Positions 14,691 through 41,589 of a stretch of DNA of 51,420 nt are shown in pieces. The stretch comes from Patescibacteria group bacterium. GTDB taxonomy: Bacteria > Patescibacteriota > Minisyncoccia > Minisyncoccales > Staskawiczbacteraceae. The stretch spans positions 1-51,420 of the forward strand of contig JBBTQB010000007.1 of the NCBI GenBank assembly GCA_038065835.1. Direction: 5' to 3'. The notes beneath the pieces are model-generated. The model did no database searches. It was not told where the DNA came from and was given only the letters and a program-made list of their open reading frames with translations. The position numbers and the translations under genes are program-made. The number at the start of each line of letters is the position of its first letter. Position 1 is the first letter of the stretch.

Positions 14691-15443
14691 TTATAAATAG
14701 TCAATACTTTTCTTAATTACTTCAAGACTCTTCGGCCCTTCATTAAATAATAAATCAATTGCGGAAAGATTTTCCATAAATGGCTCAAATCTTTGGGGGT
14801 AAATTGGGTGTTTGAAGTCCGAAAAAACGAGCTTTAGATTATTATCTTTAAACTTTTCTATTTCAATATAGGATTTTCCACCTGATCCCGAAAGATAGCT
14901 GTTTGCCTTGAATTCCTTGCATAATTCAATTATTAAATCTGTTCTTTCCAGAACGGGATTTTTCGCTTCGCGAATAAATCTCGCGTTCAGACCTTTAAAA
15001 TCGTAATCAGAACTTTTGATAAGGGTGGTTTTAATGCCTAATTCCCTCTTGATATATTGAATGATAGTCTCGTTCAAATCCACCAATTTTTGCCATTTTT
15101 TTGAATAAAGCTTTTCAAAGAACCCGCTGTATTTGTCAAAAAATGGAGTTCTCTTGTAATTAAAATAAATAAGTTGCCAATGGTGTTTTGCCCAGGGAGT
15201 AGAATTGTCTATTTGAACTTCATTTATCTTTTGGTATCCCTTTTTGTTGGCAAGAACTGGCACTGTCAGCCAAACCCAGCCCTGAGAATTAGAGTTAGTT
15301 CTAATTCGGTTACGATTTTGAAATCCCTTTCTAGAGAATTGAAGATGGTCAACCAAAATAAATTCATCGGCTTTAGCCATCTTATAAAAAAAGCCGAGGT
15401 AAGGAAGGTATTCTGGCTGATGAGCAGAAATAGTCATAAACAT
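14691..15443 (-). CDS. WbqC-family protein (copy 1)
   Basis: 250 aa. N-terminal AHQPEYLPYLGFF and FQNRNRIRT are typical of PF08889. Confidence 0.75.
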   Translation of the reverse strand: MFMTISAHQPEYLPYLGFFYKMAKADEFILVDHLQFSRKGFQNRNRIRTNSNSQGWVWLTVPVLANKKGYQKINEVQIDNSTPWAKHHWQLIYFNYKRTPFFDKYSGFFEKLYSKKWQKLVDLNETIIQYIKRELGIKTTLIKSSDYDFKGLNARFIREAKNPVLERTDLIIELCKEFKANSYLSGSGGKSYIEIEKFKDNNLKLVFSDFKHPIYPQRFEPFMENLSAIDLLFNEGPKSLEVIKKSIDYL

Positions 15444-15543: not shown

Positions 15544-16212
15544 TTATTCGGGGGGCTTGTTTACGCCCTCTTTACCATAAACTCCGCGTCTTGACAAAAC
15601 CGCAAAAAAACCTAAAAATAATATTTTAAAATCCAGCCAAAAAGACCGATTTTCAACATACCAGACATCTAATTCTAACCTTTCCCGCCAAGATGATACA
15701 AAACCTCTTCCTTTAATATCCACTAAACATATTAGGCCAGGTTTTACTGATACTCTCTTTTGCCAAAGTGTAGCTGGAAGAATATTTTGGTTAGGATACT
15801 GAGGTAGAGGCCTTGGCCCAACTAGACTCATTTCTCCTTTTAAAATATTAATAAATTGGGGCAGCTCATCAAGCGTCCATTCTCTTAAAAATCTGCCTAC
15901 TCTTGTAATGCGGAAATCATCTTTTGAAACTCCAAGACCTAAACCAATTTTTTCTGCATTTTCTACCATTGTTCTGAACTTTAAAAACTTAAATAACTTT
16001 CCATTCTTTCCTACTCTGTCTTGAATAAAAAAAATCGGGCCTTTAGAGTCCAACTTTATTAATAAGGCAATAAGTAAAAACAGAGGCATTAAAAAAACAA
16101 AGGCAATTAAAGTTATCGTGAAGTCAATTATATTTTTTACCCCGTTAAATAATTTTGCCTTTGGTAAAATTACCGCCCTGCGGTATTTAACTGGGTGAAT
16201 TTTTTCCTTCAT
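15544..16212 (-). CDS. Small monotopic phosphoglycosyltransferase (bacterial sugar transferase, PglC/WbaP C-terminal type), copy 1
   Basis: KLDSKGPIFFIQDRVGKNGKLFKFLKFRTM and DELPQFINILKGEMSLVGPRP. Residues about 5-25 are encoded by repeat 16139-16196. Confidence 0.85.
   Translation of the reverse strand: MKEKIHPVKYRRAVILPKAKLFNGVKNIIDFTITLIAFVFLMPLFLLIALLIKLDSKGPIFFIQDRVGKNGKLFKFLKFRTMVENAEKIGLGLGVSKDDFRITRVGRFLREWTLDELPQFINILKGEMSLVGPRPLPQYPNQNILPATLWQKRVSVKPGLICLVDIKGRGFVSSWRERLELDVWYVENRSFWLDFKILFLGFFAVLSRRGVYGKEGVNKPPE
16139..16196. repeat. Family-F structured element spanning the WbqC stop / PGT N-terminus
   Basis: Termini ACCCCGTTAAATA (16139-16151) and TATTTAACTGGGT (16184-16196). 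Inner hairpins ATTTTGCC-ttt-GGTAAAAT and TACCGC-cct-GCGGTA. Confidence 0.85.
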
Positions 16213-16903
16213 CTGAGTTAAATATTATCTGTTTGCTCTCAGGACCCTTATTAAATAATAAATCGATTGATGACATGTTTGGCACGAATGGTTCATATTT
16301 TTGTTTGTAAATAGGGTGTTTGAATTCGCAATATTGATGAGAAAGCCCTGCTTTTTTAAACTTTGATTCATCAACATAAAGCTTGCCACCCTGTCCTGAC
16401 AAATAACCTTCAGCCCCTATCTTTTTGCACATGTCCAAGAGCATATCTGTTTTTTCGCCGACAATATTGTAATCAGAGTTTCTTAAAATTTTAATATCAG
16501 TGTCCAATATTTTAAAAATAGTCCTTAAAATAGTTTCGTTTAAATCTACAAGTTTTTCCCATTTTTTTGAATATATTTCTTCAAAAAAGGGAATGTAATT
16601 TTCAAAAAAGGGAGTGCTTTTATAAGAGTAATATATTGATTTAAAATGTTTTTCCCTCCATTTTAATTTGTTATTTATTAAAACATCTTTTATCTTTTGA
16701 TGGAAACGCCCATGTGTTATAACAGGAACTGTTAGCCAAATCCAGCCATCGGGCCCATTTGAAGTTCTTATTCTATTTCTATTTTGAAACGATTTTTTGG
16801 CATATTGGGTATTGTCAACAAAAACAAAAGTATCGGCATGCATTGCCTTACAAATAAGGCCTATATAAGGGAGATATTCTGGCTGATGTCCTGCGATTAT
16901 CAT
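16187..16903 (-). CDS. WbqC-family protein (copy 2)
   Basis: 238 aa. GHQPEYLPYIGL and FQNRNRIRT. Its TAA stop (16187-16189) lies inside the repeat terminus. Confidence 0.75.
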   Translation of the reverse strand: MIIAGHQPEYLPYIGLICKAMHADTFVFVDNTQYAKKSFQNRNRIRTSNGPDGWIWLTVPVITHGRFHQKIKDVLINNKLKWREKHFKSIYYSYKSTPFFENYIPFFEEIYSKKWEKLVDLNETILRTIFKILDTDIKILRNSDYNIVGEKTDMLLDMCKKIGAEGYLSGQGGKLYVDESKFKKAGLSHQYCEFKHPIYKQKYEPFVPNMSSIDLLFNKGPESKQIIFNSDEGKNSPS

Positions 16904-16914
16904 ATTTAGATATT

Positions 16915-16981
16915 GGGTGTTTGGTGTTAGGTTTTGGCTTATAACGATTCCCCGTTATCTAATACCTAACACCTAAAACCC
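16915..16981. repeat. Intercistronic long hairpin
   Basis: GGGTGTTTGGTGTTAGGT (16915-16932) pairs with ACCTAACACCTAAAACCC (16964-16981) at 16/18 positions. Inner ATAACG-attcc-CGTTAT contains the CCCCGTTA word. Confidence 0.75.
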
Positions 16982-16993
16982 ATCACCTAGCGC

Positions 16994-17611
16994 CTACTCA
17001 TAATCTTTAGAAATTCCGTCTTTGTCATACTGCAAATTGGTCAGCAGAATCATAAAGGGGGTTAAAAATAATATCTTAGAATCCAGCCACAAAGACCAAT
17101 GTTCTATGTACCAAATGTCCCATATTATCCTTTGTTTCCAGGGGAGATTATTGCCTCCCTTTATTATATCCATATTTGTAATCCCAGGTTTCGCCAAAAG
17201 TCTTTTCTTTTCGAGCTCTGTATATTTGACCACTTGGTGGGGCGAAGCCGGCCTAGGGCCCACCAAAGACATGCCATCAAAAATAACATTTATAAGCTGA
17301 GGAATTTCATCTAGTCCAACTCTTCTTATAACTTTCCCAACTCTTGTGACTCTTGGGTCGTCTTTAGATGTTTCATATCTCATGCCAATATGTTCTGTGT
17401 TTTGCTGCATTGTTCTAAATTTTAGCATTATAAATTCTTTTCCATTCCTACCTACCCTTTTTTGCTTAAAAATCACGGGGCCTTTTGAATCAAGCTTTAT
17501 CAAGATAGCTATAACTAAACATAATGGACTCAATAATATAAGCAAAAAAATAGAAAATAAAAGATCTATTATATCTTTTATAACGTACTGAATAGTTAGG
17601 CTTTTTTTCAC
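16994..17611 (-). CDS. Small monotopic phosphoglycosyltransferase, copy 2
   Basis: 205 aa. KLDSKGPVIFKQKRVGRNGKEFIMLKFRTM and DEIPQLINVIFDGMSLVGPRP. GTG start at 17611 lies inside the repeat terminus. Confidence 0.85.
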   Translation of the reverse strand: MKKSLTIQYVIKDIIDLLFSIFLLILLSPLCLVIAILIKLDSKGPVIFKQKRVGRNGKEFIMLKFRTMQQNTEHIGMRYETSKDDPRVTRVGKVIRRVGLDEIPQLINVIFDGMSLVGPRPASPHQVVKYTELEKKRLLAKPGITNMDIIKGGNNLPWKQRIIWDIWYIEHWSLWLDSKILFLTPFMILLTNLQYDKDGISKDYE

Positions 17612-17731
17612 GCCGTTAGAAGTCTGTTCTTATGGTACTTTAAAGTTATTTTGAACAGATATGTTACTTTAATATTAATTTGTTAGTACGTAACAGGAAA
17701 ATTTCAATGAAATTTTCCTGTCTAACGGGGT
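17610..17731. repeat. Family-B stop-to-start palindromic element (short copy)
   Basis: Termini ACGCCGTTAGAAGT (17610-17623) and GTCTAACGGGGT (17720-17731). The upstream TGA (17732-17734) abuts it and the downstream GTG (17611-17609) is embedded. Internal perfect hairpin CAGGAAAATTT-caatg-AAATTTTCCTG. Confidence 0.85.
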
Positions 17732-19624
17732 TCATCTTACTTTTCTTGCTTCCAAATAAAAGTTATGTGAAAAAATAATAAACAATGGTAAAAAAAGATT
17801 AAAAAAACGGTGAATTCTAAGCTTTATAATAACATCTGCCATAAAATCCAAAAAACTTGGCATAACATAAACACCTTTTAAATTAAATCTATCAAAACCA
17901 TTTTGCCTCATCAAGCCTTTGAATCTGTAGGGATTGTATCTTATTAACTTTTCTTTCTGTAATAAAATATCTAAAGCAAAAACATTTAAAGTAACAATAA
18001 TTAAAAGTCCGTCTTTTTTTAAAACTCTTTTTAATTCACCAATAGCTCTTTCTGAATCAGATAAAACTTGAAGAACTCCTTTACAAATAACAATATCAAA
18101 AAAACCATCTTCAAACGGCAAATTATAAGCATCAGCCACTTGGAAATTTATACTTTTGTCTTTATTTTTTGCAGCTTCAATAATTTCTGGAATATAATCG
18201 ACTCCATAGCATTGAAAACCTAATTCTAATAAGGGCATCAGGGTGTCTCCAAAACCACAGCCGACATCAAGTATTTTATTTTTTAAATTATAATCTCTAC
18301 TTCCAATATGCTTTTTAAAATAATCAAAAAAATAAACATTATCATTTCTAAATCCGGTTTTAGAATGAAACATTATTTCATGCTCTTTTTTCCCGTCCCT
18401 GGCAGCCCGACTGTATTTTGAAAACCATTCATCTTCAAGTCTAGTATTAAGTTTTTTCTTGATTAACTCTTCATAGGCAGAACCCAATCTTTCAAGAACT
18501 ATTTTTTTGCTGAATTTTTGAATAACTTTTTTTCTCCCCATGATTCCCATCTCTCTTGCTATTTCTGGGTTATCTAAAAGATAACCTATGGCACTCACGA
18601 TTTTGTTCGGGTTATTTACGGGAATTAATATGCCTGTTTTGCCATCATCAACTGCCTCAAGAATTCCTCCGGTATTAGTGGCTATGACCGGCCTCTCCAT
18701 TGACGAAGCTTCTAATATTACTGCTCCCAAACCTTCCCTGCGAGACGGCAAAACAAAAATATCCATCACCGAATACAGCTCCTGAACATCAGTCCTATCT
18801 CCCAGGAAAATAACATTACTGCCAAAGCCATAGGATTTAATTGTTTCAAGGTTAATGGGATCTTTTTTTTCCGGCTCAAGGGGCCCTACAACCAAAAGCA
18901 CGACATTATCGTATTTCTTTAAAATTTCCTGAAAAGCTTCGAATAATTCCAAGTACCCTTTTTCAACTACTAATCTGGCAACAATTCCAACTATTCTTTT
19001 ATCATCAGGTATACTTAATTCTTTTTTCTTCCTCTTTTTGAATTCATCGTTAAAGTTTTGAGGATTGAATCTATCAGTATCTATATCCCTCCCCAGGTAC
19101 AAAAGAACATCGGCAGAGAATATTTTATGTTCTTTGGCTTTGTTAATTATATCGTCACTTATTGAAAAAACTACTGATGAATATTTTCCAGTTATCTTTT
19201 GGAGCAACAGGTAAAGTTTTTTCTGCCAATAAGGAAGAGATCTGGGTAAGTCAGATCCAAATCCATGTAAAGTATTTAAAATAATGGGAACTCCCGCCAA
19301 GTAAGCTGATAACTGGCCGTAAATTTCAGCTTTGGGAGTATGAACATGAACAATATCAAACTTTTCTTTCTTGAAATAAAAAAATAACCTTATAAAAGCC
19401 AGTAAATCAGAAAATGGACTTATCATTCTTCTAGATAGTTTTATTGTTTTAACTTTAATGCCTTCGTTTTCTAGGCTCTGAATCCACTTTCCAGGGCTAC
19501 AAACAGCATGAACATCATAATCTTGAGATCGCAAAAACTTTAACTGGTCAAACAGCATAAATCTTAAGGTAAAGTCGGAGCTGACAACTTGGCAGATTTT
19601 GACATTTCTTTCTTTATTGTTCAT
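17732..19624 (-). CDS. Fusion: GT4 glycosyltransferase + class I SAM methyltransferase + C-terminal membrane helix
   Basis: 630 aa. GT4 E-x7-E region EGLGAVILEASSMERPVIATNTGG. Methyltransferase motif I ILDVGCGFGDT. Hydrophobic tail FFNLFLPLFIIFS. Confidence 0.75.
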   Translation of the reverse strand: MNNKERNVKICQVVSSDFTLRFMLFDQLKFLRSQDYDVHAVCSPGKWIQSLENEGIKVKTIKLSRRMISPFSDLLAFIRLFFYFKKEKFDIVHVHTPKAEIYGQLSAYLAGVPIILNTLHGFGSDLPRSLPYWQKKLYLLLQKITGKYSSVVFSISDDIINKAKEHKIFSADVLLYLGRDIDTDRFNPQNFNDEFKKRKKKELSIPDDKRIVGIVARLVVEKGYLELFEAFQEILKKYDNVVLLVVGPLEPEKKDPINLETIKSYGFGSNVIFLGDRTDVQELYSVMDIFVLPSRREGLGAVILEASSMERPVIATNTGGILEAVDDGKTGILIPVNNPNKIVSAIGYLLDNPEIAREMGIMGRKKVIQKFSKKIVLERLGSAYEELIKKKLNTRLEDEWFSKYSRAARDGKKEHEIMFHSKTGFRNDNVYFFDYFKKHIGSRDYNLKNKILDVGCGFGDTLMPLLELGFQCYGVDYIPEIIEAAKNKDKSINFQVADAYNLPFEDGFFDIVICKGVLQVLSDSERAIGELKRVLKKDGLLIIVTLNVFALDILLQKEKLIRYNPYRFKGLMRQNGFDRFNLKGVYVMPSFLDFMADVIIKLRIHRFFNLFLPLFIIFSHNFYLEARKVR

Positions 19625-21898: not shown

Positions 21899-23503
21899 TT
21901 ATAATTTTAGATACTTCTCTAAAAGTGGCACTTTGACGTTCTTTAATCTATCAAGTCCGAAGGGTAGTAGGCATAAAAGGGCTAAAAATGCCGGCATTCT
22001 AATTCTAGTTATCATGCCAAAATTATTTATGTAAAGAGACAAAACTCCAAAAATAAGAAGACTGAAAATAATTAAAGGCAAGATAACTTTGTAATTTACT
22101 TTTATGGATTTTAGCATACCCTTTATAATAAAGAATAGCAGAAAATACCAGGGGATTACTTCTGGCAAAACAAAAAGGTGTTTGGCTTTTTTTAACTGCC
22201 AGGGGAAGGGACCCAAAATAGAGTAAACAAAAGATAAGGAATTGCTTTTAAGAAATGAAATGGGATTGTCAAAACCAGCATCTATTACAATTGAGGAATC
22301 TTGAGCTATTGTACTTTTACCCTCTGGCAGAGGTATGGTTTCTTCTGCTTTTTTGGTTTCTTGAAGCTGAGATTTTGGGGGATAAGCTAGTTCTCTATAA
22401 CCAACAATTGTTTGGGGATTTAAAAAATTTTTAATAGCTTTTACACCCATATATCCTTGAGTAGCTCCGTCTAATGGAGCAATTCTCGGCAAAAAACCAA
22501 GAAGAAGAATCATTATAATTCCATAAATAACTCTTTTTTTAATTCTTAAATCACAAAAGCTAAACCAACAAATTATGAAACTTAAAATAAGTGCATAACC
22601 AATATAAAAACGGAAATGGGTCACTCCAGCCAACACAATATAGAAAATCAAAAAATTTAACCAGGAGAATTTTTTAATTATCTTTAAGGTCAACAACAAC
22701 CCAATAACGCTCAGTAAAACAACTAAAGCATCTTTTAATAACAAACTTCCGTAGAACGCCAAAGAGGGGTAAAAACAAACAATTAATCCCACAATGAAAC
22801 CTTCTTTTTTTGAACGACCTATTTGACAAACCAATAAAAAAACAAATACGGCTATGAGGGCAACTATCCAAGCGTTAAGCAACTGACCCATCAGCATGCT
22901 GGGAACTGTTAGAAGATAAACATAACCAATAGCAAGCGGATAGTAGTGGACCAGCGGCAAACCTAAGAATGGTAAACCTTCTAAAGAAAAATTTCCCGCA
23001 GAAACTCTTTTTGATATTTCTAGTGCAATTGCATGATATTCATTGAAATCTCCCCTTCCCTCACTGAATGGTTGAAAATCTGCATAATATACAAAAACAA
23101 CCATTACGATATGAATCAAAAAAACAATTAAAAAGAGTAGGGTTAAAAACTTTACCGTTTCCCCGCCCGCATCGCTATGCCAGCCTGCATTACCTGCGTT
23201 ATTATGTCTGGCAGGCGAAGCATTGCGGGCAGGCTTTTCTTTTACCCAGTTAGAAAGCTCTGCTTCTTTTTTCTCTTTTTCTAAAAAAGGACTATTGTTT
23301 GTTAAAATATTGCCCTTTCTAACGGGGTTTATTGTGTTAATAAAAAATAAAGCAATAGAAGATAAAAAAACAACAAATATAGCTCCTACAGCCAAATCTT
23401 TGTCAATCAAGGAAAGCAAAGCTAATATAATACAGATTAATATAACTTTATGATACCTTGAAAATGATTCTAAAAAATCCACCTCGTTAGAAGTTATGGG
23501 CAA
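21899..23503 (-). CDS. Polytopic membrane protein, GT-C-like (ArnT/PMT-type) or glycan polymerase/ligase; N-terminus built from repeats
   Basis: 534-aa ORF with at least 9 hydrophobic helices. An acidic loop GDFNEYH follows the helix FLTLLFLIVFLIHIVMVVFVYY. The first ~125 codons overlap three repeat copies, so the start is uncertain (TTG 23503 or GTG 23482). Confidence 0.4.
   Translation of the reverse strand: MPITSNEVDFLESFSRYHKVILICIILALLSLIDKDLAVGAIFVVFLSSIALFFINTINPVRKGNILTNNSPFLEKEKKEAELSNWVKEKPARNASPARHNNAGNAGWHSDAGGETVKFLTLLFLIVFLIHIVMVVFVYYADFQPFSEGRGDFNEYHAIALEISKRVSAGNFSLEGLPFLGLPLVHYYPLAIGYVYLLTVPSMLMGQLLNAWIVALIAVFVFLLVCQIGRSKKEGFIVGLIVCFYPSLAFYGSLLLKDALVVLLSVIGLLLTLKIIKKFSWLNFLIFYIVLAGVTHFRFYIGYALILSFIICWFSFCDLRIKKRVIYGIIMILLLGFLPRIAPLDGATQGYMGVKAIKNFLNPQTIVGYRELAYPPKSQLQETKKAEETIPLPEGKSTIAQDSSIVIDAGFDNPISFLKSNSLSFVYSILGPFPWQLKKAKHLFVLPEVIPWYFLLFFIIKGMLKSIKVNYKVILPLIIFSLLIFGVLSLYINNFGMITRIRMPAFLALLCLLPFGLDRLKNVKVPLLEKYLKL
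23161..23234. repeat. Family-C G+C-rich imperfect palindrome, intragenic
   Basis: GCCCGCA...TGCGGGC, TCGC/GCGA and GCCAG/CTGGC pairings. Shares the words GGCGAAG, GCGGGCAGGC and CCTGC with 8210-8268. Read in frame as ...ARNASPARHNNAGNAGWHSDAGGE... Confidence 0.7.
23244..23328. repeat. Family-B-type element, intragenic, opposite orientation
   Basis: Termini ACCCAGTTAGAAAG (23244-23257) and CTTTCTAACGGGGT (23315-23328), 13/14 complementary. Read in frame as NPVRKGNILTNNSPFLEKEKKEAELSNWV. Confidence 0.75.
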
Positions 23504-23670
23504 AATGTCATATGGGACATTTTGCTTACTCTTTGTTAATTTTTATTATTTACCTTATTTTAACCCATTGAAGTTTTAATTATCCTCATACAAACCCCGT
23601 TAGGGGTTTGTTTCTTTTGCATTTACCTTAAAACTCCTTGACCTCTAACGGGGCAAACTTCTAACGGAGT
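23481..23670. repeat. Family-B stop-to-start palindromic element (long copy 2)
   Basis: Termini ACCTCGTTAGAAGT (23481-23494) and ACTTCTAACGGAGT (23657-23670). Nested pair ACCCCGTTAGGGG (23594-23606) and ACCTCTAACGGGG (23641-23653). TGA of the upstream GT4 at 23671-23673 abuts it. High similarity to 33804-34027. Confidence 0.9.
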
Positions 23671-25634: not shown

Positions 25635-25730
25635 TTATAATAATTTTAATAAAAATTGAAAGGCATAACATCATAGCTCTGATTAATAGACCTTACCACA
25701 AAAATCAGCTTATTTTCAAGTATTTATATT

Positions 25731-25897
25731 GTGAGCTTGGTGAATAATGCCATATTGGCGTCTTTATCTAAAATATCGGCTGCAAATTGGTAAAGATTAT
25801 TCAACGATGCCCTCTGGCATCGCCTCATAATCTTTACCAATTTTCGCTGTGATATTTTAAACAAATCCATCCAAAGAGCATTATTCACCAAGCTCAC
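25731..25897. repeat. 167-bp nested palindrome upstream of the SDR/GT4 sub-operon
   Basis: Perfect 20-bp inverted repeat GTGAGCTTGGTGAATAATGC (25731-25750) / GCATTATTCACCAAGCTCAC (25878-25897). Inside it are the 16-bp pair AATTGGTAAAGATTAT / ATAATCTTTACCAATT and the core GATGCC-ctct-GGCATC. Confidence 0.9.
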
Positions 25898-25921
25898 GTT
25901 ATAATGTACAAACATGGCGCG

Positions 25922-26040: not shown

Positions 26041-26871
26041 TTAAATATTTTTTAATTCTAGTTTCATAATCACCTGTTTGAGAACGCCGATGATTTGCCT
26101 GATCGTCGGATTAGGTTCAGGAAAACTTACCGATACCACAGCCCCATACAGAGTCTCAAAGGAACGTTTATAGCCTTTTTCTTTGCGGGGTCTTCCGCTG
26201 CGTTCTTTACGCTCTTCCTTACCCCTGTCTTTTGCATTATGCAACTGCTCGCGAAGTCTGCCACCAGGAATTTTTTCATCAATTACCTCTTGAAGAACCT
26301 TTGGCTGCTCCTTTTCGGGAATTCCTGATACTTGGTAAAGATTTTCCATTCCAACCTTGCTCGCTCCTGCTGAAGATGCGATCTTTTTAGCTTTTGGGCC
26401 AAGATTCTTAGCAACACTAAGCACCTTGCTAACCCATGATTCGCTTTTATGAACCATTGCTGCAATCTCTATTAAAGTTTTCTTGCGTTCTTCTTTATGA
26501 GCTAGCAACTCTTCTGCTAATTCTATGGGCGACAGATCTTCCCTATGAAGATTTTCGATCAGCCGGATTTTGCTAATGTTGCCATCGCTGATGTCAGCAA
26601 CAATTACCGGAATGGCATGCAAGTTGGCTAATTTGGCCGCTCGTCTGCGACGATCGCCGCATACGGTTTCATATCTCAAACTGCCCTTTTTAGGACGCGC
26701 TAACACCGGCTGAATTATGCCGACATCGGCGATACTCTGAGACAATTCCCTTAGGGAAGAGTCTCCCTTTGTAGGATCAACTGTCCTCAATGCTTTGGCC
26801 GGCGGCTCTAAATGTTTGACTTTCATCATCAAAAACTGAGGATTCCATTTTTCGATTCCGATGACAGCCAT
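26041..26871 (-). CDS. Orphan ParB/KorB-like DNA-binding protein (ParB N-terminal domain + HTH)
   Basis: 276 aa. Arginine patch GDRRRRAA, IENLHREDLSPIELAE, HTH-like SESWVSKVLSVAKNL, basic tail. Strong SD GGAGGT 5 nt before the ATG. G+C visibly above the neighbours. Confidence 0.75.
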   Translation of the reverse strand: MAVIGIEKWNPQFLMMKVKHLEPPAKALRTVDPTKGDSSLRELSQSIADVGIIQPVLARPKKGSLRYETVCGDRRRRAAKLANLHAIPVIVADISDGNISKIRLIENLHREDLSPIELAEELLAHKEERKKTLIEIAAMVHKSESWVSKVLSVAKNLGPKAKKIASSAGASKVGMENLYQVSGIPEKEQPKVLQEVIDEKIPGGRLREQLHNAKDRGKEERKERSGRPRKEKGYKRSFETLYGAVVSVSFPEPNPTIRQIIGVLKQVIMKLELKNI

Positions 26872-28897: not shown

Positions 28898-28948
28898 AGA
28901 GTGCAGGATTCGAACTATCATCAATTGATAGTTCGAATCCTGCACTCT
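28898..28948. repeat. Family-A 51-bp perfect palindrome (23-bp arms, 5-nt loop)
   Basis: AGAGTGCAGGATTCGAACTATCA-tcaat-TGATAGTTCGAATCCTGCACTCT. Contains the TGA stop of the methyltransferase and ends 15 nt before the GT4 ATG. Confidence 0.95.
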
Positions 28949-29946: not shown

Positions 29947-31439
29947 TTTTGTGATGTCAAAAACCTTTTTATTTCCTTGCAGATAAACTGGTAATTATTT
30001 TTATCATTTGGGTCTTTCGCATAAAGGATATCTGCCAAGATACTGTTCCTCAAATAAGAAATAATGAATCTCATATTAATTTCCTCCAAATTCACCCCGT
30101 TAGAGGTTTGCTTTGTTTCATTTTCTCTCAAGACTCCCTGATCTCTAATGGGGTTGGGTAAATCCCAATTTATTTGAAGGTCTCTTTTTATTTTTTCCTT
30201 TAAGTCTTCAAAGTTTACTACCTTTTGGCATAAAGGATGATAAGAATAAAATACGTTTCCCAAAACATAGACTGGTTTTCCCTGTATTGCCGCTTCCATG
30301 CCAACCGTGCTGGTCATGGTAATTACGCCTATTGAATTAGCAATAACGTTTGGCGTTGATTCTTCTGAAGACAACAATACAGCATTGGGTATTTTTTTTA
30401 TCTCTTCGTAAAACTGATTGGTCCTTGAGCCAATAGAGCCCGGATGCTCTTTTAAACATAATTTATAAGGAAATGGCAGGGTGGCTGAAACATATTTTAT
30501 GGTAGCTAACTGGTTTGAATAATAGGTTGCTAAAACTAAAGTTGAAGCTTCCGGCTCGTATTGAATAGGAAAAAAGAAATATTTGTCTTTTGAGCTAAGC
30601 TTATTAAATATATTTCCCTGGAGTTTGATTTTAATATTTTTTTTAATGGTTCTAAATGGAGCCATAAGGCTTCTCCTTAACACTGCCTCGCTTTCGTAGT
30701 CAAATCTCTTAACTTTGGACCTATCCAAAAAATACCTGAAGAAAACGTAGCTGGATTCTTTAAGTCTTCTTAAGTAATGTCTAATATAATCAAATAAACT
30801 AAATCTTACTTTGACTATATAATAAGAAGAATAAATGGTTTTGTGAGATATGAACTTTTTTATGAAATTTTTGGCAAATTCTGTTTCGCCCGGCAAAAAA
30901 TCTTCCTTTTTCAAATTTTTGAAATTATCTTCAAATTTTGAGCAGGTCCATTCTAAGTCCCAAATATCTATCCTACCCGGGAAGCGCGATTCGGCGATGC
31001 CACAAAAAGGAATATTATTTTTTTTAGTAAAATAGTAAGCCACCTCGCCAAAAAGCCCTGGCGGCGGTTCCCCAATTACAATATCTGGCTTTTCATAACT
31101 AAAAATGTAGTCAAAAAATTGATAAAGTTGATTTACTATATCCAAAGATTGATTGTAATTGTACCTATTATAAAGATTAAACCTTTCAAAAACAGTAAAA
31201 AGCTCTCTCCAGCTCAAATTCCCAAAGTCTTTTTTTGAAGAATCGTAGTTTTTAATGCACCAATCTATTTTTGATAAAAACTTGGAATTTTTAGGAAAAA
31301 ACTTGCCCTTTTCATACTCAGCAATCTTGCTGTTAAAAACAACCAAACATTCATCTCCTTCTTTTGTAAGCTGATGGGAAATCTTGCCTAAAAATTCAAA
31401 TAAATATGACGCATCATTTATTAAAAATAGCCATTTCAT
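29943..31439 (-). CDS. Capsule polysaccharide biosynthesis protein (KpsS/LpsZ-like, Capsule_synth family)
   Basis: 498 aa. YFFFPIQYEPEAS...CLKEHPGS...ITMTSTVGMEAAIQGKPVYVLG pattern. Carries the in-frame repeat 30094-30154 near the C-terminus. Confidence 0.5.
   Translation of the reverse strand: MKWLFLINDASYLFEFLGKISHQLTKEGDECLVVFNSKIAEYEKGKFFPKNSKFLSKIDWCIKNYDSSKKDFGNLSWRELFTVFERFNLYNRYNYNQSLDIVNQLYQFFDYIFSYEKPDIVIGEPPPGLFGEVAYYFTKKNNIPFCGIAESRFPGRIDIWDLEWTCSKFEDNFKNLKKEDFLPGETEFAKNFIKKFISHKTIYSSYYIVKVRFSLFDYIRHYLRRLKESSYVFFRYFLDRSKVKRFDYESEAVLRRSLMAPFRTIKKNIKIKLQGNIFNKLSSKDKYFFFPIQYEPEASTLVLATYYSNQLATIKYVSATLPFPYKLCLKEHPGSIGSRTNQFYEEIKKIPNAVLLSSEESTPNVIANSIGVITMTSTVGMEAAIQGKPVYVLGNVFYSYHPLCQKVVNFEDLKEKIKRDLQINWDLPNPIRDQGVLRENETKQTSNGVNLEEINMRFIISYLRNSILADILYAKDPNDKNNYQFICKEIKRFLTSQK
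30094..30154. repeat. Family-B core hairpin, intragenic and in frame
   Basis: ACCCCGTTAGAGGT (30094-30107) and ATCTCTAATGGGGT (30141-30154). About 80 percent identical by eye to the inner unit of 33951-34010. Translated NPIRDQGVLRENETKQTSNGV. Confidence 0.85.
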
Positions 31440-32871: not shown

Positions 32872-33805
32872 TTATTATTTTACCATTGTTATTCGCGCTT
32901 TTTTTTATGGCAAACAAAACTTTTAGAACTTCCAATCCGTCCTGCCCCGTGCTTTGAGGCCGTTCTCTTTTTTCTAAGCAAGAGACAATATGCCAAACCA
33001 TTTGAGCCATTAAACTTCTCTGGCTTCCTATTTTTAAATTATTGTAACTTATCTGCATCCCTAATTTTTTAAGAAATAATTTATTCTTTTCACCATAGAA
33101 AGACCATTCGGTAAGTTTTTGCTTTTCGCTTACAGATTGAAGAAATGCCCTTGCTCCACTTTTAAAGAAGATTATTGCATCAACGTTTTTATCTCTTTTG
33201 GGGTTGGATGTTAAATTATTGTAAAAACCAATTACCTCCTTTACTTCGCCTAGAAACATTCTCAGTAAATCCATAATATGGGTTCCATTATTAAAAAGAC
33301 CATTGTGGTAAGCCGAATAAGATTGCAACACGTTTCCCAAAATTCCATTCTTAACTTTTCTTTGCCATCTTTGTATTAAAGAATCAAAGTGCCTTGAGTG
33401 GTTTACAAACAAAAGGCATTTTTTCTGACGACACAATTTAACCATCTCTTTGGCTTCCCCAAGAGAATCAGCAATTGGTTTTTCACAAACTATTGCTTTT
33501 ACTCCCAAGCCCGCTGCCATTTTAACAAACTTATAGTGGGTATTAGTATGAGTCGCTACCGAGACAATATCGGGTTTGGTTTCTTTAAGCATCTTTTTGG
33601 CTGATGAATATAAAGAGACGTCTGGAAAAAGTTTCTTAGCTTTTTTTAATTTTTCAGAATCAATATCACAAAGACCTACCAATTCAATTTTGGAGTTTTT
33701 AAAATAAGCCGCGGCGTGAGTAGCTGGCCTTACGTTTCTTGAGTAATTCCATTCTTGGGCTCCAATCCGACCGCAACCAATAACTACTGCTTTGTATTTT
33801 TTCAC
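32858..33805 (-). CDS. Gfo/Idh/MocA-family sugar-nucleotide oxidoreductase
   Basis: 315 aa. N-terminal Rossmann KAVVIGCGRIG. GTG start at 33805 embedded in the repeat terminus. Confidence 0.8.
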   Translation of the reverse strand: MKKYKAVVIGCGRIGAQEWNYSRNVRPATHAAAYFKNSKIELVGLCDIDSEKLKKAKKLFPDVSLYSSAKKMLKETKPDIVSVATHTNTHYKFVKMAAGLGVKAIVCEKPIADSLGEAKEMVKLCRQKKCLLFVNHSRHFDSLIQRWQRKVKNGILGNVLQSYSAYHNGLFNNGTHIMDLLRMFLGEVKEVIGFYNNLTSNPKRDKNVDAIIFFKSGARAFLQSVSEKQKLTEWSFYGEKNKLFLKKLGMQISYNNLKIGSQRSLMAQMVWHIVSCLEKRERPQSTGQDGLEVLKVLFAIKKSANNNGKIINVVH

Positions 33806-34027
33806 CCCGTTAGAAGTATGGGCAAAATGTTAATCATGAGACCTGGTCTTATCAACGAGGCCGGGTCTCGTTGTGACAATTTGCTTGCTCTTTGTTAATA
33901 ATTATCATATTAAATTTTGACTCATTAAAGCTTTTTACTACCTTATCCAAACCCCGTTAGAGGTTTGTTTCTTTTGCATTTACCTTAAAGCTCCTTGACC
34001 TCTAACGGGGCAAACTTCTAACGGGGT
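33804..34027. repeat. Family-B stop-to-start palindromic element (long copy 1, with nested insert)
   Basis: Termini ACCCCGTTAGAAGT (33804-33817) and ACTTCTAACGGGGT (34014-34027). Nested pair at 33951-33964 / 33998-34010. A 44-nt G+C-rich insert (33831-33874) splits a hairpin that is intact in the 23481-23670 copy. Confidence 0.9.
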
Positions 34028-34894
34028 TCATTCTTTTACACAATCAACCAAGAAAGCATTGGCCATGAAATGGCCGTACCAATCTTTTGATTTTTTTACT
34101 TCCAATTGTCTTTTAAATCTTTCTAACTTATCTTTATATTTATTTTCTATCAATCTAGGTAGGGGGAAAAAGCTATAAAAATATTTCTGCAATAACCTGA
34201 GTTTGTACTTAGCGAGTTCTTCACCAATCGTTAAGGGGTTGGTTGTTTCAACATAAATATTATCCCTAGCAATCTTAGCTGAATAATCTGGCTTGTTTGG
34301 GTGTGTTATTAGGCTCTCTAGGTCCTTAACTATGCCTTTGCCTAATAACTTTTCTAACCTCAACGGTTCAAAAAACTTCTCTTCAAAAAAATAAATGGTG
34401 TATTTATTGAAAGTGAATAAATCAAAAAGAGCGTTTTGGAAGGTAGCCATCATATGGCCTTTGGGTTTTAGTAAGCGATGAATTTTTATATACAATTGGC
34501 TTCTTTTTTTTGGAGGCAAATACTGAAATACTCCCATTAGAATAACAAAATCAAAAGAATTTTTAGGCAAGCTACCTAATTCTTTGATACTTCCCCTAAT
34601 AATGCTGTCTTCACTAAAACCCGCTTCTTTGAGACGTCCTTTTGCTAATCTGAATAATTCCTTGCCTTTTTCAATTCCCTTAGCTTTAATACCGAGCTTT
34701 AGCATTTTCAATAGCAAAGCTCCCCCGCCGCATCCAAAATCTAAGACAGTAATCTTGCTTTTATTTTTTTCTCTATACTCTGGCAGGATTAACTCAAGAA
34801 ATATTTCGTCTCTGGGAGCATGAGCTGAAAAATAACCTTCGGCTAAATCTTCAAAATACTTTTTTGTTTTTTTGGCATTATATTTATGAACCAT
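34028..34894 (-). CDS. Class I SAM-dependent methyltransferase
   Basis: 288 aa. Motif I VLDFGCGGGALL. Confidence 0.7.
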   Translation of the reverse strand: MVHKYNAKKTKKYFEDLAEGYFSAHAPRDEIFLELILPEYREKNKSKITVLDFGCGGGALLLKMLKLGIKAKGIEKGKELFRLAKGRLKEAGFSEDSIIRGSIKELGSLPKNSFDFVILMGVFQYLPPKKRSQLYIKIHRLLKPKGHMMATFQNALFDLFTFNKYTIYFFEEKFFEPLRLEKLLGKGIVKDLESLITHPNKPDYSAKIARDNIYVETTNPLTIGEELAKYKLRLLQKYFYSFFPLPRLIENKYKDKLERFKRQLEVKKSKDWYGHFMANAFLVDCVKE

Positions 34895-37228: not shown

Positions 37229-37284
37229 ACCCGGTTAAATAGCCCAAGGGGCTAATTTCGCAAAGCGAAATTATTTAACTGGGT
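37229..37284. repeat. Family-F structured element, intergenic copy
   Basis: ACCCGGTTAAAT (37229-37240) and ATTTAACTGGGT (37273-37284). Hairpins AGCCC-aag-GGGCT and AATTTCGC-aaa-GCGAAATT. Followed by the tandem repeat (AAATCGT x3). Confidence 0.85.
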
Positions 37285-37308
37285 AAATCGTAAATCGTAA
37301 ATCAAAAA

Positions 37309-38568
37309 TCAATCACCTTCCCACCCTCGACCAATTAAAACATATTTATCTTCCTTTTCTTTTACTCCCACTCCTTCTCTTTTGTTAATAATAAATTGAC
37401 AATTATCCTTTTTAGTTAATCTAGCCGAATCAACGCCCTCATCTTTTGCATGATTGATTACAGAATCTTGGAGTTGCCACTGATTTCTTTTATTCTTTTT
37501 CCAAATTTCTGGATCTCTTTTCTTGTCAATATAAGACCAGAATTCCTTTTCTGGCATTGAAATCCAACTTAAAAATAATTGTAAGGCTTTTTTGCTTGGT
37601 TTTAAATTCTGATATTTTCTTACAAGTTCAATCCCCTTTTCCTGGGTTAGGCGCTTTAACCTAATTTCTCTAGTTGCATGATCGGTAGCTTTTCCGTAAC
37701 CCCATTTTAAAAATTTAATATAATCATGTAATTCAGAATAATTAAAACAGTCTACATCGTTATATGTGTCAAAAGTTCTTGGCTGCAAAACTGTTTTGTA
37801 GCCATAAAGATTTATCATCAACTCGTGCTGTTTTTTTGAGTCCCAGCGGATATAATTTGAAAGATAAATTCCTCTGACTCCAACTTTTTCTATTTCCTTA
37901 TCGTGAGGGTATTTATAGGGAGTAACATCACTTTCTGATATATTGTCATCAATCAAATCTTCCGATTCAAAACCCATCAAATCATGGTCTTTTCTATACC
38001 TTCTCGTCATTTCTACCTCGTCTAAATGGCTAAACTGACCAACTTGGTCAACTCCTTGATGAACCCCCCAAATGATAAGAGGAATTTTAAATCTAACAGC
38101 GATTTGAACCGGAAAAACAGTCTGCCCGGCAATACAATGCCAGTATACGCTGCCCATTTTTTCTATTGTATACCTCGTTATCTTCTTAACGGTTTCTGGG
38201 GAAATCGTTAAAGTAAATAAATCGCATCCAAAAATGGTTTTTAAATAGGCTAAGTTTCTTATTCCCAATTTTGTGTTGTATTGCTTGTTGTAAGTTACCA
38301 ATAAAGGATGCATTTTATAAACATTTTTTACGGTATGAACTATAAAATAAGAATCTCTAGCTCCGCTAACTGGTATAATGCAGTCATAATTTTTGCCGTC
38401 TTTATTTCTATACTGCTCCAGTATTTTTTTTAATTTTTTCTCACGCTCCGACCAATTAATAACGTCTTTTTCTCCATGGATAAGACACCCGCTGCAAACA
38501 CTTTTTTCATTAAAGATTATGCCAAGAGGATGATTTGCTGGGTATAAACATCTTACACAATATTTCAT
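37309..38568 (-). CDS. N-acetyl sugar amidotransferase (WbuX/PseA/LfnA-type PP-loop enzyme), copy 2
   Basis: 419 aa. N-terminal Cys cluster CVRCLYP...CSGC. PP-loop-like IIPVSGARDS. Confidence 0.75.
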   Translation of the reverse strand: MKYCVRCLYPANHPLGIIFNEKSVCSGCLIHGEKDVINWSEREKKLKKILEQYRNKDGKNYDCIIPVSGARDSYFIVHTVKNVYKMHPLLVTYNKQYNTKLGIRNLAYLKTIFGCDLFTLTISPETVKKITRYTIEKMGSVYWHCIAGQTVFPVQIAVRFKIPLIIWGVHQGVDQVGQFSHLDEVEMTRRYRKDHDLMGFESEDLIDDNISESDVTPYKYPHDKEIEKVGVRGIYLSNYIRWDSKKQHELMINLYGYKTVLQPRTFDTYNDVDCFNYSELHDYIKFLKWGYGKATDHATREIRLKRLTQEKGIELVRKYQNLKPSKKALQLFLSWISMPEKEFWSYIDKKRDPEIWKKNKRNQWQLQDSVINHAKDEGVDSARLTKKDNCQFIINKREGVGVKEKEDKYVLIGRGWEGD

Positions 38569-39552: not shown

Positions 39553-41589
39553 TTATTCCCTTGCGCTTTTTAACGCACTATAAAATGTTTCGTATTCTTT
39601 TACTAATTGGTAGTCATCAACATTCGCAACAAGATCATCATATTTTTGTGCATTTATAGTTTTTAAAGACTGACGTATTTTCTCAAAAACACCCTTGATT
39701 TTTTCTTCGGACGGATTTCTGGTGTCGACTATATATTCATAATGGCTTAATATGGGCGATTTGCTTAATAAGTATTTTAGTTCCGTAGCATCTTCTTCTT
39801 TTGTTCCAGGTGAAAAATCAAAGAATAATTCTGGCATAGCTTCCCTCATTTTTACTCTAAATCTTGGACTCTCTTTGAGGAGTTTCTCAAAATCTTTATG
39901 AGATTTTAATTCTTCAAACACTTCCCTTTGTAGGTTGTTATCTAAAAAAATCAACGATTGTGCATGGTAATCTGAAAGTGTTTTATTTTTTAAGTAATTT
40001 TTAAGAATACCCCTAAAATCTAGTTCAGAATTTGTTTGCGAAATCTTATATAGCGTTTCAATTTCAGTCCTGTCTGCACTCTCTGCAATTTTTAAGTATT
40101 CTTGTCCAATTGCTTTAATAAATGGTTTTGGTAGTCCCTGCGGCACTCCTTGTTTTTTCATCAGTTCCAATGCTCTTGATACATAAAACTGCTTTTCTTC
40201 TTCTGGGCTTACATGACCTCCTACATCACCAGGTTTTTCCATTTTCAAGGCATAAAAAGACAGAATGTGTTTTAATTGTTCTTCCTTATTTGGAGCAGTA
40301 TCTTTAAGGTCTTTTCCAATTGCATTAACCACAGGCTCCATTCTGGTGAGCGTATAATCTAAACCTTCTATCTCTTTAGTATCTAAATTTCTCTTTGCCC
40401 ACGTAGTATCAATGATAACCGCATTTGCAGCACCCCCTCTTGAAACAGTAACGAATGTATTCCAAGCATGTCCGCTCTTATTCATTTGTTGCTTGTTCCA
40501 ATCCTCTCTTTTGGGAGCAAAAGTTTCTGTGCCTTTTTCATATAGGCAATAAGTATCACGAAGTTGACTGAACTGCGTTTGGTTTTCCTTTAATGCTTCA
40601 AAAACTGCTTTAATAGCACTGGCAAAATTTCTGCAGACTCCATTACCCTTCCAATCTTTATTATCTCTTTTTTTCTTTCCTTCTTTCAAAAGTTCCAAGG
40701 TAGTGCTTTCATCTGCCTCTGTTTTTTCTGGCTCACCCGTATAAATTCCTTTGTATTTTTTTACATCACTCCACTTATATTTCGTTAAATCAATAACTAT
40801 TTGAGTTGCTAACTCTATTGCTTGTTTTGGAGTAAGTGCATCTAAATGTTCAATTTTTAACTGCTTCAAAATGTCTTGACCATCCTTTTGGAGATGTTCA
40901 GAAACAAAAGCAAAGAGCTTTTTCTCCCAATCTTTTTCTTTAATTGTTTCTTGATACGTTGAAGCTCCCGGTTCAGTTCCGTCCAGTCTTCCTTCCCCTA
41001 TTAAATACTTTTTAATGGAATCTGGTATTTCGTGAGTCTCTTTTGACGGGGCAACATTTGGATTAAATGCGGTAAGTTCTTCAAAGGCAATCTTTTCATT
41101 TTCAGCTGTTTTAATTTCAAGCAAGGGATTACGTGTTAACTTTTCCTCATCTTTTCTCCTTTCTAAAAAATAATCCTTAGCTTCGTTCCAGGTATCAAAT
41201 TCTTTATAGGTTGTGCCAATATAATGACCTGTTTTTGTATCAACTAATCCCGGAAGCATAACTCTAAATTTGCCCTCTGGATTTTCATCAATTCTGAAGA
41301 AATATTTTGAATATGTTTTTTCCAGCGAGGCTCTTTCAAATTGCTCTTTCACATCTTCTTTTACTTGTTCTACGGCTGTCTCAGCTTCTTGTCTTGTTTC
41401 AAAAATTTTCTTGGTTGTTCCAAAAATCAACCTTTTATTTTTATCCAAAAGACCGGGCATATTAACTTCAAAACCATTTTCAACTGGACTTATTTCATAC
41501 AAACCTATCACAGATTTCTTTTTTTCTGGCTTTAACCGTTCTTTATTATCTTGTGATTGTTGTTGTGACTGCTCATTTTTTTTTGACAT
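39553..41589 (-). CDS. Large cytoplasmic protein with transglutaminase/papain-like Cys-His-Asp core and duplicated N-terminal module
   Basis: 678 aa, no signal peptide. Candidate triad GVCRNFA / SGHAWNTFV / IIDTTW. Two ~50-aa N-terminal repeats (NGFEVNMPGLLDKNKRLIFGTTKKIFETRQEAE and GKFRVMLPGLVDTKTGHYIGTTYKEFDTWNEAK). Confidence 0.45.
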   Translation of the reverse strand: MSKKNEQSQQQSQDNKERLKPEKKKSVIGLYEISPVENGFEVNMPGLLDKNKRLIFGTTKKIFETRQEAETAVEQVKEDVKEQFERASLEKTYSKYFFRIDENPEGKFRVMLPGLVDTKTGHYIGTTYKEFDTWNEAKDYFLERRKDEEKLTRNPLLEIKTAENEKIAFEELTAFNPNVAPSKETHEIPDSIKKYLIGEGRLDGTEPGASTYQETIKEKDWEKKLFAFVSEHLQKDGQDILKQLKIEHLDALTPKQAIELATQIVIDLTKYKWSDVKKYKGIYTGEPEKTEADESTTLELLKEGKKKRDNKDWKGNGVCRNFASAIKAVFEALKENQTQFSQLRDTYCLYEKGTETFAPKREDWNKQQMNKSGHAWNTFVTVSRGGAANAVIIDTTWAKRNLDTKEIEGLDYTLTRMEPVVNAIGKDLKDTAPNKEEQLKHILSFYALKMEKPGDVGGHVSPEEEKQFYVSRALELMKKQGVPQGLPKPFIKAIGQEYLKIAESADRTEIETLYKISQTNSELDFRGILKNYLKNKTLSDYHAQSLIFLDNNLQREVFEELKSHKDFEKLLKESPRFRVKMREAMPELFFDFSPGTKEEDATELKYLLSKSPILSHYEYIVDTRNPSEEKIKGVFEKIRQSLKTINAQKYDDLVANVDDYQLVKEYETFYSALKSARE

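Follow-up and report, generated by a model that had tools for sequence, protein, structure and literature searches.

Palindromic elements ending in the GTG start codon of the next gene in a Patescibacteria operon: probable footprints of a small transposon in ATGA stop/start overlaps

How can a palindromic repeat begin at the stop codon of one gene and end within the start codon of the next? The question is raised by a 224-bp intergenic element at positions 33804-34027 of contig JBBTQB010000007.1 (assembly GCA_038065835.1) of a Patescibacteria group bacterium, situated between a methyltransferase gene and a Gfo/Idh/MocA gene. The window, i.e., the whole stretch of 51,420 nucleotides that was analysed, comes from Hainich groundwater and has about 34% G+C, and its minus strand carries nearly all the long open reading frames (ORFs). 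In the initial annotation the element was regarded as a portable cassette for translational coupling or RNA processing. It is argued here, with a probability of roughly 0.85, that the element is a relic of a non-autonomous DNA transposon resembling MITEs (miniature transposable elements with inverted repeats), and that the stop/GTG geometry is the footprint of its insertion into ATGA(A) stop/start overlaps. The features of this element, designated copy A, are the following:

33805..34026, minus strand: composite core of copy A, 222 nt from CCCC to GGGG, aligning over its full length with copy B and the copy of contig L131
34014..34026, minus strand: left terminal inverted repeat, CCCCGTTAGAAGT; the same 13-mer also bounds most of the short copies elsewhere
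33805..33817, minus strand: right terminal inverted repeat, ACTTCTAACGGGG, the last G of which is the first base of the GTG start
34027..34030, minus strand: left target-site duplication TGAA, containing the methyltransferase stop TGA (34030-34028)
33801..33804, minus strand: right target-site duplication TGAA, making with G33805 the Gfo/Idh/MocA start GTG (33805-33803)
33952..34010, minus strand: nested hairpin element, 59 nt, CCCCGTTAGAGGT...ACCTCTAACGGGG, with its own TTTG/TTTG duplication (34014-34011, 33951-33948)
33853..33873, minus strand: small internal palindrome, CAACGAGGCC/GGTCTCGTTG, inside a 33-column alignment segment absent from copy B

The inverted termini of 14 nt described initially agree with the sequence check: ACCCCGTTAGAAGT occupies 33804-33817, and 34014-34027 is its exact reverse complement, so that the arms are perfectly complementary. 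On the gene strand, the methyltransferase ends in ...GTA AAA GAA TGA and is followed immediately by ACCCCGTTAGAAGT, i.e., the stop directly abuts the element, as had been claimed, and the other end reads ACTTCTAACGGG-GTG-AAA AAA TAC. The interval 33804-34027 extends beyond the core by one base of the target duplication at either end; with its true boundaries, marked here by colons, copy A reads GAA-TGAA:CCCC...GGGG:TGAA-AAAATAC, which is an exact TGAA duplication, and the A at 34031 before the left TGAA completes what is taken as an orphaned ancestral ATG. The window contains 16 occurrences of the terminal motif (at most three mismatches allowed) where 2.5 are expected; none of 100 shuffles reached 16. 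The nested inverted pair noticed earlier is real, with coordinates 33952-33964 / 33998-34010 (13 nt, 100% complementary) and not from 33951. Because the 59-nt hairpin that it bounds has a TTTG/TTTG duplication of its own, it is read as a short family member inserted into a longer one, and it resembles free-standing 59-nt copies of other loci, such as L106, L125, L128, and L129. Judged from its sequence, copy A is thus a composite of a member of about 159 nt and the nested 59-nt insertion, and the composite appears to have spread afterwards, since the full-length alignment of A, B, and L131 has a mean column identity of 81%. Assemblies made independently from other Hainich samples (L002, L005) contain the same arrangement, and copy A is therefore no assembly artefact.

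The GTG opens an ORF of 315 aa, and its assignment as the Gfo/Idh/MocA start was confirmed in two ways: 16 orthologues (58-74% identity) align from the same N-terminus, MKKYKAVVIGCG, and in two syntenic relatives the DNA at this place is ATGAAAAAATACAAAGCAG (L007) and ATGGGTGGCAAAAAATATAAAGCAG (L009), with ATG at exactly the position of the GTG codon. The Rossmann motif GCGRIG is present as described, at residues 10-15 instead of 11-16, which is a trivial difference. At the start of the 534-aa membrane protein that follows copy B, L010 has ATGAATTTTTTAGAATCA and the window has ...GAGG-TGGATTTTTTAGAATCA, at the same codon; for the sugar transferase that follows copy C, the Bac_transf domain extends from residue 12, with no further start codon between the GTG and this residue. 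A comparison with orthologous junctions, which the initial annotation had proposed as a check, found the junctions of L007, L009, and L010 without the element. The syntenic operons L007/L010 and L009 contain zero copies of the terminal motif, their gene order is identical, and the same genes, at about 72% amino-acid identity, start with ATG at the same codon.

The geometry recurs, as had been stated, at 23481-23670 and 17610-17731, and it was verified at both places:

23482..23669, minus strand: composite core of copy B, 188 nt, with a nested hairpin at 23595-23653
23673-23670 and 23481-23478, minus strand: flanks of copy B, TGAA (holding the glycosyltransferase stop) and TGGA, with GTG at 23482-23480
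17611..17730, minus strand: core of copy C, 120 nt, having only the termini in common with A and B
17734-17731 and 17610-17607, minus strand: TGAA flanks of copy C, the former holding the stop, with the sugar transferase GTG at 17611-17609

Copy B reads AGA-TGAA:CTCC...GAGG:TGGA-TTTT, with the stop TGA at 23673-23671 and one substitution in the duplication, at a site where L010 has ATGAAT. Copy C reads AGA-TGAA:CCCC...GGCG:TGAA-AAAAAGC, with the stop TGA at 17734-17732 and an exact TGAA duplication. A third composite copy was found in L131, another Hainich contig from the same aquifer; it, too, runs directly into a start codon, CGGG-ATG-AAT, an A having replaced the terminal G. The stop/GTG geometry accordingly holds for all three junction copies of the window (3/3), and the copy of L131, as a fourth, also abuts a start codon.

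In the proposed course of events, the ancestral junctions of this compact, almost entirely coding operon would have been ATGA(A) stop/start overlaps. The four-base ATGA overlap is common in bacterial operons, and it occurs elsewhere in this operon, at 29946-29943, and at the methyltransferase/glycosyltransferase junction of L010. The element would have inserted into the TGAA of an A-TGA-A overlap; the left TGAA copy would retain the stop of the upstream gene, leaving the old ATG orphaned, and the right TGAA, coming after the terminal G of the element, would read GTG-AA, with the downstream frame and the position of the first codon kept. Removal of the core and one TGAA from copy A would leave ...AAA GAA TGA overlapping ATG AAA AAA TAC, i.e., a reconstructed empty site of ...GAATGAAAAAATAC... 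At its left boundary, each of the copies A, B, and C reads ATGAA:C, with the orphaned ATG kept. The same footprint is seen in an unrelated genome, the Staskawiczbacteria metagenome-assembled genome (MAG) L064, as TAG-c-ATGAA:element:TGAAAAACC, where the right flank TGAAAAACCTTAAAT comes after TAG-C-ATGAA:CCCC...GGGG and is followed by a 295-codon ORF; L111 is a GTG-initiated case. The TGAA targets at start codons are abundant, since 18 of the 45 window genes begin with ATGAA (manual count from the start contexts). As they carry stop codons, the copies A, B, and C (222, 188, and 120 nt, respectively) should be intolerable inside a gene; long copies of this kind would survive only at such junctions, which would produce an apparent junction specificity, and the short copies of 3n+2 length, open in two frames on both strands, would survive within genes. 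The stop/start architecture, which had been put forward as the mark of a new repeat class, loses this role, for it follows from the TGAA duplication and the terminal G.

Other palindromes of the window, unrelated to this family, show the same behaviour. At one junction, where the relative L010 has an ATGA overlap, the window has a member of an unrelated palindrome family. This palindrome (28898-28948), with perfect 23-nt arms (AGAGTGCAGGATTCGAACTATCA), fills the methyltransferase/glycosyltransferase junction, and its loop supplies the TGA stop of the upstream gene. Copies of its arm lie at both contig ends (26-51, 51370-51395) and probably explain the assembly break. The tRNA-like GGTTCGAATCC repeat at the contig ends is a different palindrome from the elements under study; a tRNA scan of the window found none.

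The family was searched for in species-representative genomes with the degenerate pattern CCCCGTTAGRRGT-N25-45-ACYYCTAACGGGG, by which the short copies elsewhere were recovered, and at least 119 matches were obtained; the counts given below refer to the matches listed. Its members have 13-nt inverted termini, CCCCGTTAGAAGT, with CC...GG ends, and the short copies measure 51-71 nt. The hosts include many Patescibacteria lineages, Planctomycetota (Pirellulales, Phycisphaerae), Omnitrophota, Ratteibacteria, Nitrospirota, Elusimicrobia, Pseudomonadota, and Bacteroidota, and the family appears to have crossed many phyla; one match only was in a viral contig, and a phage link is therefore not indicated. 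The CCCC...GGGG core has identical 4-bp flanks in 71 of 118 short copies, and the next-outer 4 bp have no such identity. The duplicated tetranucleotide is YNNR, mostly TNNA (TAAA 12, TTTA 10, TCAA 8, TTCA 7, TTGA 6, and TGAA 5 of the 71 exact pairs), and because pairs such as TTTG/TTTG and TGAG/TGAG occur, a 2-bp duplication with longer termini is excluded. The duplications of the window are of the same kind: TGAA/TGAA in A and C, TGAA/TGGA in B, TAAA/TAAA in copy E (described below), and TTTG/TTTG in the nested hairpin. Thus, the inverted termini, the target duplication, the small size, the dispersed copies, and the empty orthologous sites together form the signature of a MITE, the members being also non-coding and multicopy. 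No family of Rfam 15 was found at the gathering threshold on the elements of the window or in 18 loci with copies, a full-text literature search for the 13-mer and 10-mer termini gave chance matches only, and nothing specific was found in the literature on MITEs in Patescibacteria or the Candidate Phyla Radiation or on start-codon regeneration; within the searchable literature the family appears undescribed.

Several further observations concern the short copies. The six commonest duplications are each one base off TTAA, and TTAA itself was met in one of the 71 exact pairs (L011-L129), a scarcity that may reflect a readier excision from perfect TTAA sites or a sampling effect. In 68 of the 119 short copies (L011-L129) two hairpins within the terminal stem (Y shape) are predicted; their sequences vary between copies and the predicted pairing is kept, which suggests a structural constraint at the DNA or RNA level. 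The N-terminal motif of prepilins and pseudopilins holds several copies (KGFT-PLEV...LLTG-FTLIELLVV, with TTTA duplication), namely L128 5052-5152, L019 3651-3715, and L093 5171-5235, and this may be due either to a target preference ...TTTA:CCC or to the abundance of pilin genes. The most recurrent neighbours of the copies are GspE and GspF, of type II secretion / type IV pilus systems, at 7 and 5 of the 119 loci.

The compatibility of the short copies with coding sequence follows from their termini and length. Two of the three terminus frames are open (CC CCG TTA GAA GT for PLEV; C CCC GTT AGA AGT for PVRS), and the third stops immediately (CCC CGT TAG); as the termini are palindromic, two frames are open on both strands. 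The length was 3n+2 in 86 of 119 short copies (p = 7e-18), so that a core together with its 4-bp duplication adds whole codons, and a frame that is open on entry continues in one that is open on exit. The commonest identifiable location in other genomes is within an ORF that continues for at least 60 codons to either side of the copy (42 of 109 copies). Of these 42, 40 have the 3n+2 length; among the remaining copies the number is 39/67 (p = 4e-5). Stop codons are also avoided in the interior, with 3.23 of 4 frames open compared with 2.58 +/- 0.10 in shuffles. Only 7 of the 109 copies had same-strand ORFs of 80 codons or more on both sides, and together with the intragenic share this speaks against a repeat class defined by stop/start architecture. 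In seryl-tRNA synthetase (SerRS), two related Patescibacteria MAGs have a 21-residue NPVRSATNGG..TSNGV insertion that is absent from three other SerRS. In the window, two copies are read in frame:

30095..30153, minus strand: copy D, a 59-nt hairpin within the Capsule_synth gene, with the in-frame reading NPIRDQGVLRENETKQTSNGV
23245..23327, minus strand: copy E, 83 nt, with TAAA/TAAA duplication (23331-23328, 23244-23241), lying in a loop of the 534-aa membrane protein and read in frame

In comparison with two orthologues, copy D accounts for exactly 21 inserted residues, and deletion of 59 + 4 = 63 nt restores the orthologue length. Copy E adds 83 + 4 = 87 nt, i.e., 29 codons; compared with the orthologue, the surrounding loop is hypervariable and contains other palindromes.

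Some points weigh against the transposon reading as it is stated above. The duplications are imperfect in copies B, D, and L131. The closest relatives available share no more than about 72% protein identity, and their A and B junctions are not ATGA overlaps, having spacers of 13 nt and 4 nt, for which reason the ancestral overlap is reconstructed rather than observed. The source organism is covered by the window and one extra contig only. Finally, searches of the window and of about 0.8 Mb of DNA flanking the 119 listed copies yielded neither a cognate transposase nor an autonomous element with the same termini, and mobility is consequently deduced from footprints only. Paired termini 1-5 kb apart in the copy-bearing loci enclose ordinary genes, and an all-against-all clustering of 611 flanking ORFs gave housekeeping families only (GspE/F, MgsA, SerRS, L25, MiaB, and others). 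Two regions of the window are absent from the otherwise syntenic L010 operon and may be insertions: the ParB_N/HTH_ParB gene (26041-26871) with a neighbouring cluster of long inverted repeats (25724-25904), and a 678-aa ORF (39553-41589) with no Pfam match. Both proteins were considered as transposases; neither is one, and neither is flanked by the termini.

The CC..GG ends and the 4-bp duplication offer a lead, and only a lead, to a possible parentage among IS1380 and piggyBac elements, which have 4-bp duplications and 5'-CC..GG-3' termini in common (PMC10045372). The likeness extends to the TTAA-like palindromic target and to inverted repeats of about 13-14 bp (PMC10045372; PMC10140906). In contrast to these elements, no transposase gene with matching termini was found for the present family in the sequence searched, and TTAA accounts for only 1/71 of its exact pairs.

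As RNA, the junction copies are predicted to be strongly structured. Copy A folds at -73.2 kcal/mol (z = -6.0 vs shuffles), the outer helix closing the predicted structure and the GUG being paired; the predicted folds of copies B and C also bury the GUG (z = -5.2 for copy C). The earlier suggestion that the start codon can be masked in a long helix formed by the termini is thus supported at the level of predicted folds. The lack of a Shine-Dalgarno tract before the GTG was likewise correctly noted and is not distinctive, for in most of the 45 window genes the start region is A/T-rich and lacks a Shine-Dalgarno match; a clear exception is the ParB_N gene, which has GGAGG upstream. Since the window genes are of this kind, a buried GUG should initiate poorly alone, and probably the ribosomes finishing the upstream gene melt the terminal helix and let the buried GTG initiate. 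The helix could alternatively be opened by ribosomes on a 9-codon ORF extending from the orphaned AUG to a UAG in the terminus of the nested hairpin. Such helix-mediated re-coupling would have come with the inverted termini as a by-product and not as an evolved function. A start masked by distant upstream pairing is familiar from the IF3-L35-L20 operon and from the long-distance pairing of MS2, where ribosomes translating the upstream cistron open the downstream start; the mechanism supposed here would be similar, with the difference that those pairings are conserved and selected, whereas here the pairing comes from transposon termini and is decaying.

The same observations bear on the cassette model of the initial annotation, according to which UGA and GUG face each other at the helix base of a portable translational-coupling or RNA-processing unit and the architecture is under selection. 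The model can draw on the presence of the helix in the minimum-free-energy folds of A and C, on the paired GUG in A, B, and C, on the stop directly at the helix base in 3/3 junction copies, and on a largely Shine-Dalgarno-less genome with unstructured A/T-rich starts, where a buried GUG needs unfolding. However, the geometry is fully predicted by the TGAA duplication and the terminal G, the same junctions in relatives have no element, other junctions are occupied by unrelated palindromes, and most of the listed family copies elsewhere lie inside ORFs or in other intergenic settings. The stems of B, C, and L131 are decaying without compensatory changes, the arm substitutions of B and L131 giving C-A mismatches. 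The internal AAGGAG with the short frame MQKKQT(S/P)NGV, described as conserved, is indeed found in both A and B, but its ATG and the AAGGAG are lost in L131; hence, the mini-frame is not conserved, and it was discarded as a gene, copy D reading the equivalent region in another frame. With decaying stems, an unconserved small ORF, and relatives without elements, a purpose-built cassette is not supported, and the model is considered improbable. The suggestion that the element carries an outward-facing promoter, as some Correia elements do, so that a transcript without the left arm would leave the GTG unmasked, is quite improbable as well: there is a sigma-70-like TTGATA-17-TAACAT some 20 nt before the GTG (33855-33827, gene strand), but three such matches fell in the 600-nt region scanned against 1.6 expected, the -35 segment is deleted in copy B and different in L131, and the internal sequence of copy C is unrelated.

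Two classes of known palindromes were also weighed against the transposon reading. An origin as REP/REPIN palindromes mobilised by a RAYT (Y1 HUH) transposase, or as hairpins arising from non-transpositional processes, would match copies that are short, structured, and multicopy, many with two GC-rich internal hairpins. REPINs are extragenic and make no target duplication, whereas duplications are the rule here and 42/109 copies are intragenic, and no RAYT-like gene was among the recurrent flanking proteins; this origin is very improbable. The least credible of all the rivals is a recombination site at gene-cassette boundaries, such as the integron attC. The imperfect palindromes with GTTAGAA/TTCTAAC resemble the R-box consensus of attC (GTTRRRY/RYYYAAC), stand directly after stop codons, and have matches in integron-rich phyla, but the polarity is reversed, GTT being outer here and at the inner end of the R box in attC. 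Moreover, 4-bp direct duplications flank the copies, some copies lie within conserved genes, gene order is identical in the relatives without elements, and no integrase is present. An intrinsic terminator was rejected too, as the gene-strand scan found none within the element and the outer stem is followed by GUGAAAAAA, not by a U-run; the only minus-strand match was in the methyltransferase gene, and one plus-strand match was in the nested hairpin.

Among known systems, the closest in behaviour are the Rickettsia palindromic elements (RPEs), repeats of roughly 150 bp reported from Rickettsia species, which, like the present family, are short palindromic mobile repeats often found in frame in unrelated protein-coding genes, including housekeeping ones, where they add a peptide segment without destroying the protein (PMC10969869). 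In-frame insertion into genes was found here in copy D, in SerRS, and in the 42 copies within long ORFs. Unlike RPEs, the family has sharp 13-nt inverted termini, a clear 4-bp duplication, a 3n+2 quantisation of length, short copies of 51-71 nt, and hosts in many phyla; it is regarded as a functional analogue of RPEs and not as a member, the hosts being of unrelated phyla and the likeness noted being one of behaviour. The Correia elements of Neisseria (CREE/NEMIS) are also MITEs with inverted termini; they are co-transcribed with their neighbours, form long RNA hairpins processed by RNase III, and can affect downstream expression. Their termini measure 26 bp, their duplication is TA, and they contain an IHF site. 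The present termini and duplication differ, and none of these sequence features of Correia elements is present. Another bacterial MITE, Chunjie of Geobacter uraniireducens, was reportedly inserted into an operon without disrupting its structure (Chen et al. 2008, Genetics); the situation within an operon is similar, and the sequence and the host are different. For Chunjie we know of no report of a start codon regenerated from duplication and terminus or of 3n+2 coding compatibility.

In total, the window holds five copies, the nested hairpin being counted once, and two related copies:

16140..16195, minus strand: copy G, related subfamily, 56 nt, CCCAGTTAAATA...TATTTAACGGGG
37230..37283, minus strand: copy F, related subfamily, 54 nt, Y-shaped, intergenic, upstream of a DegT-type aminotransferase gene

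In copy G, the stop of the upstream ORF is a TAA in the left terminus, and the downstream 222-aa ORF reads through in frame near its N-terminus. Copies C and G are adjoined by direct repeats (14691-15443 vs 16187-16903, 15544-16212 vs 16994-17611) with a spacing of about 1466 nt and 72-77% identity, which indicate that a two-gene unit was duplicated in tandem. Short tandem heptamer/hexamer runs (GATTTAC x3; TTGATT/TTTGAT) lie at 37285-37312, directly upstream of copy F, and at 5230-5260. The membrane-protein loop that contains copy E also has, at 23162-23233, a GC-rich imperfect palindrome of 72 nt from another repeat family (CCTGCCCGCAATGC...GCGATGCGGGCGGG), with the in-frame reading PARNASPARHNNAGNAGWHSDAGG, and in the same loop L010 has yet another small palindrome (~18790-18820), GGGACAGAA...TTCTGTCCC. 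A further palindromic repeat, GGTGTTAGGT...ACCTAACACC, occurs at 16904-16993 in the spacer upstream of a 238-aa ORF, and a similar sequence was found at 3337-3368.

A wider reading, which is speculative and rather unlikely in its full extent, would see here a cross-phylum MITE family, possibly related to IS1380/piggyBac, that is near-harmless in gene-dense genomes: the 3n+2 length and the 4 bp would add codons, the terminal G would rebuild a start at TG-initial targets, and the inverted termini would draw the separated stop and start close to each other in the mRNA and so restore coupling across the insertion. If this is true, transposon-mediated, structure-dependent re-coupling without Shine-Dalgarno initiation would be seen at work in the stop/GTG copies. 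The junction copies in any case offer a natural test bed for re-initiation across a structured spacer of 120-220 nt in bacteria that mostly lack Shine-Dalgarno sequences. For genome annotation, the transposon reading means that the genes 3' of the elements start at the GTG embedded in the repeat, and that the 17- to 29-residue "NPVR...SNGV" or "PLEV...LLTG" segments are transposon-derived peptides and not native sequence. For the biology of streamlined, nearly all-coding genomes such as those of Patescibacteria, it would show how a tiny transposon persists in them, namely by adding whole codons, avoiding stops, and regenerating stop and start codons at gene overlaps.

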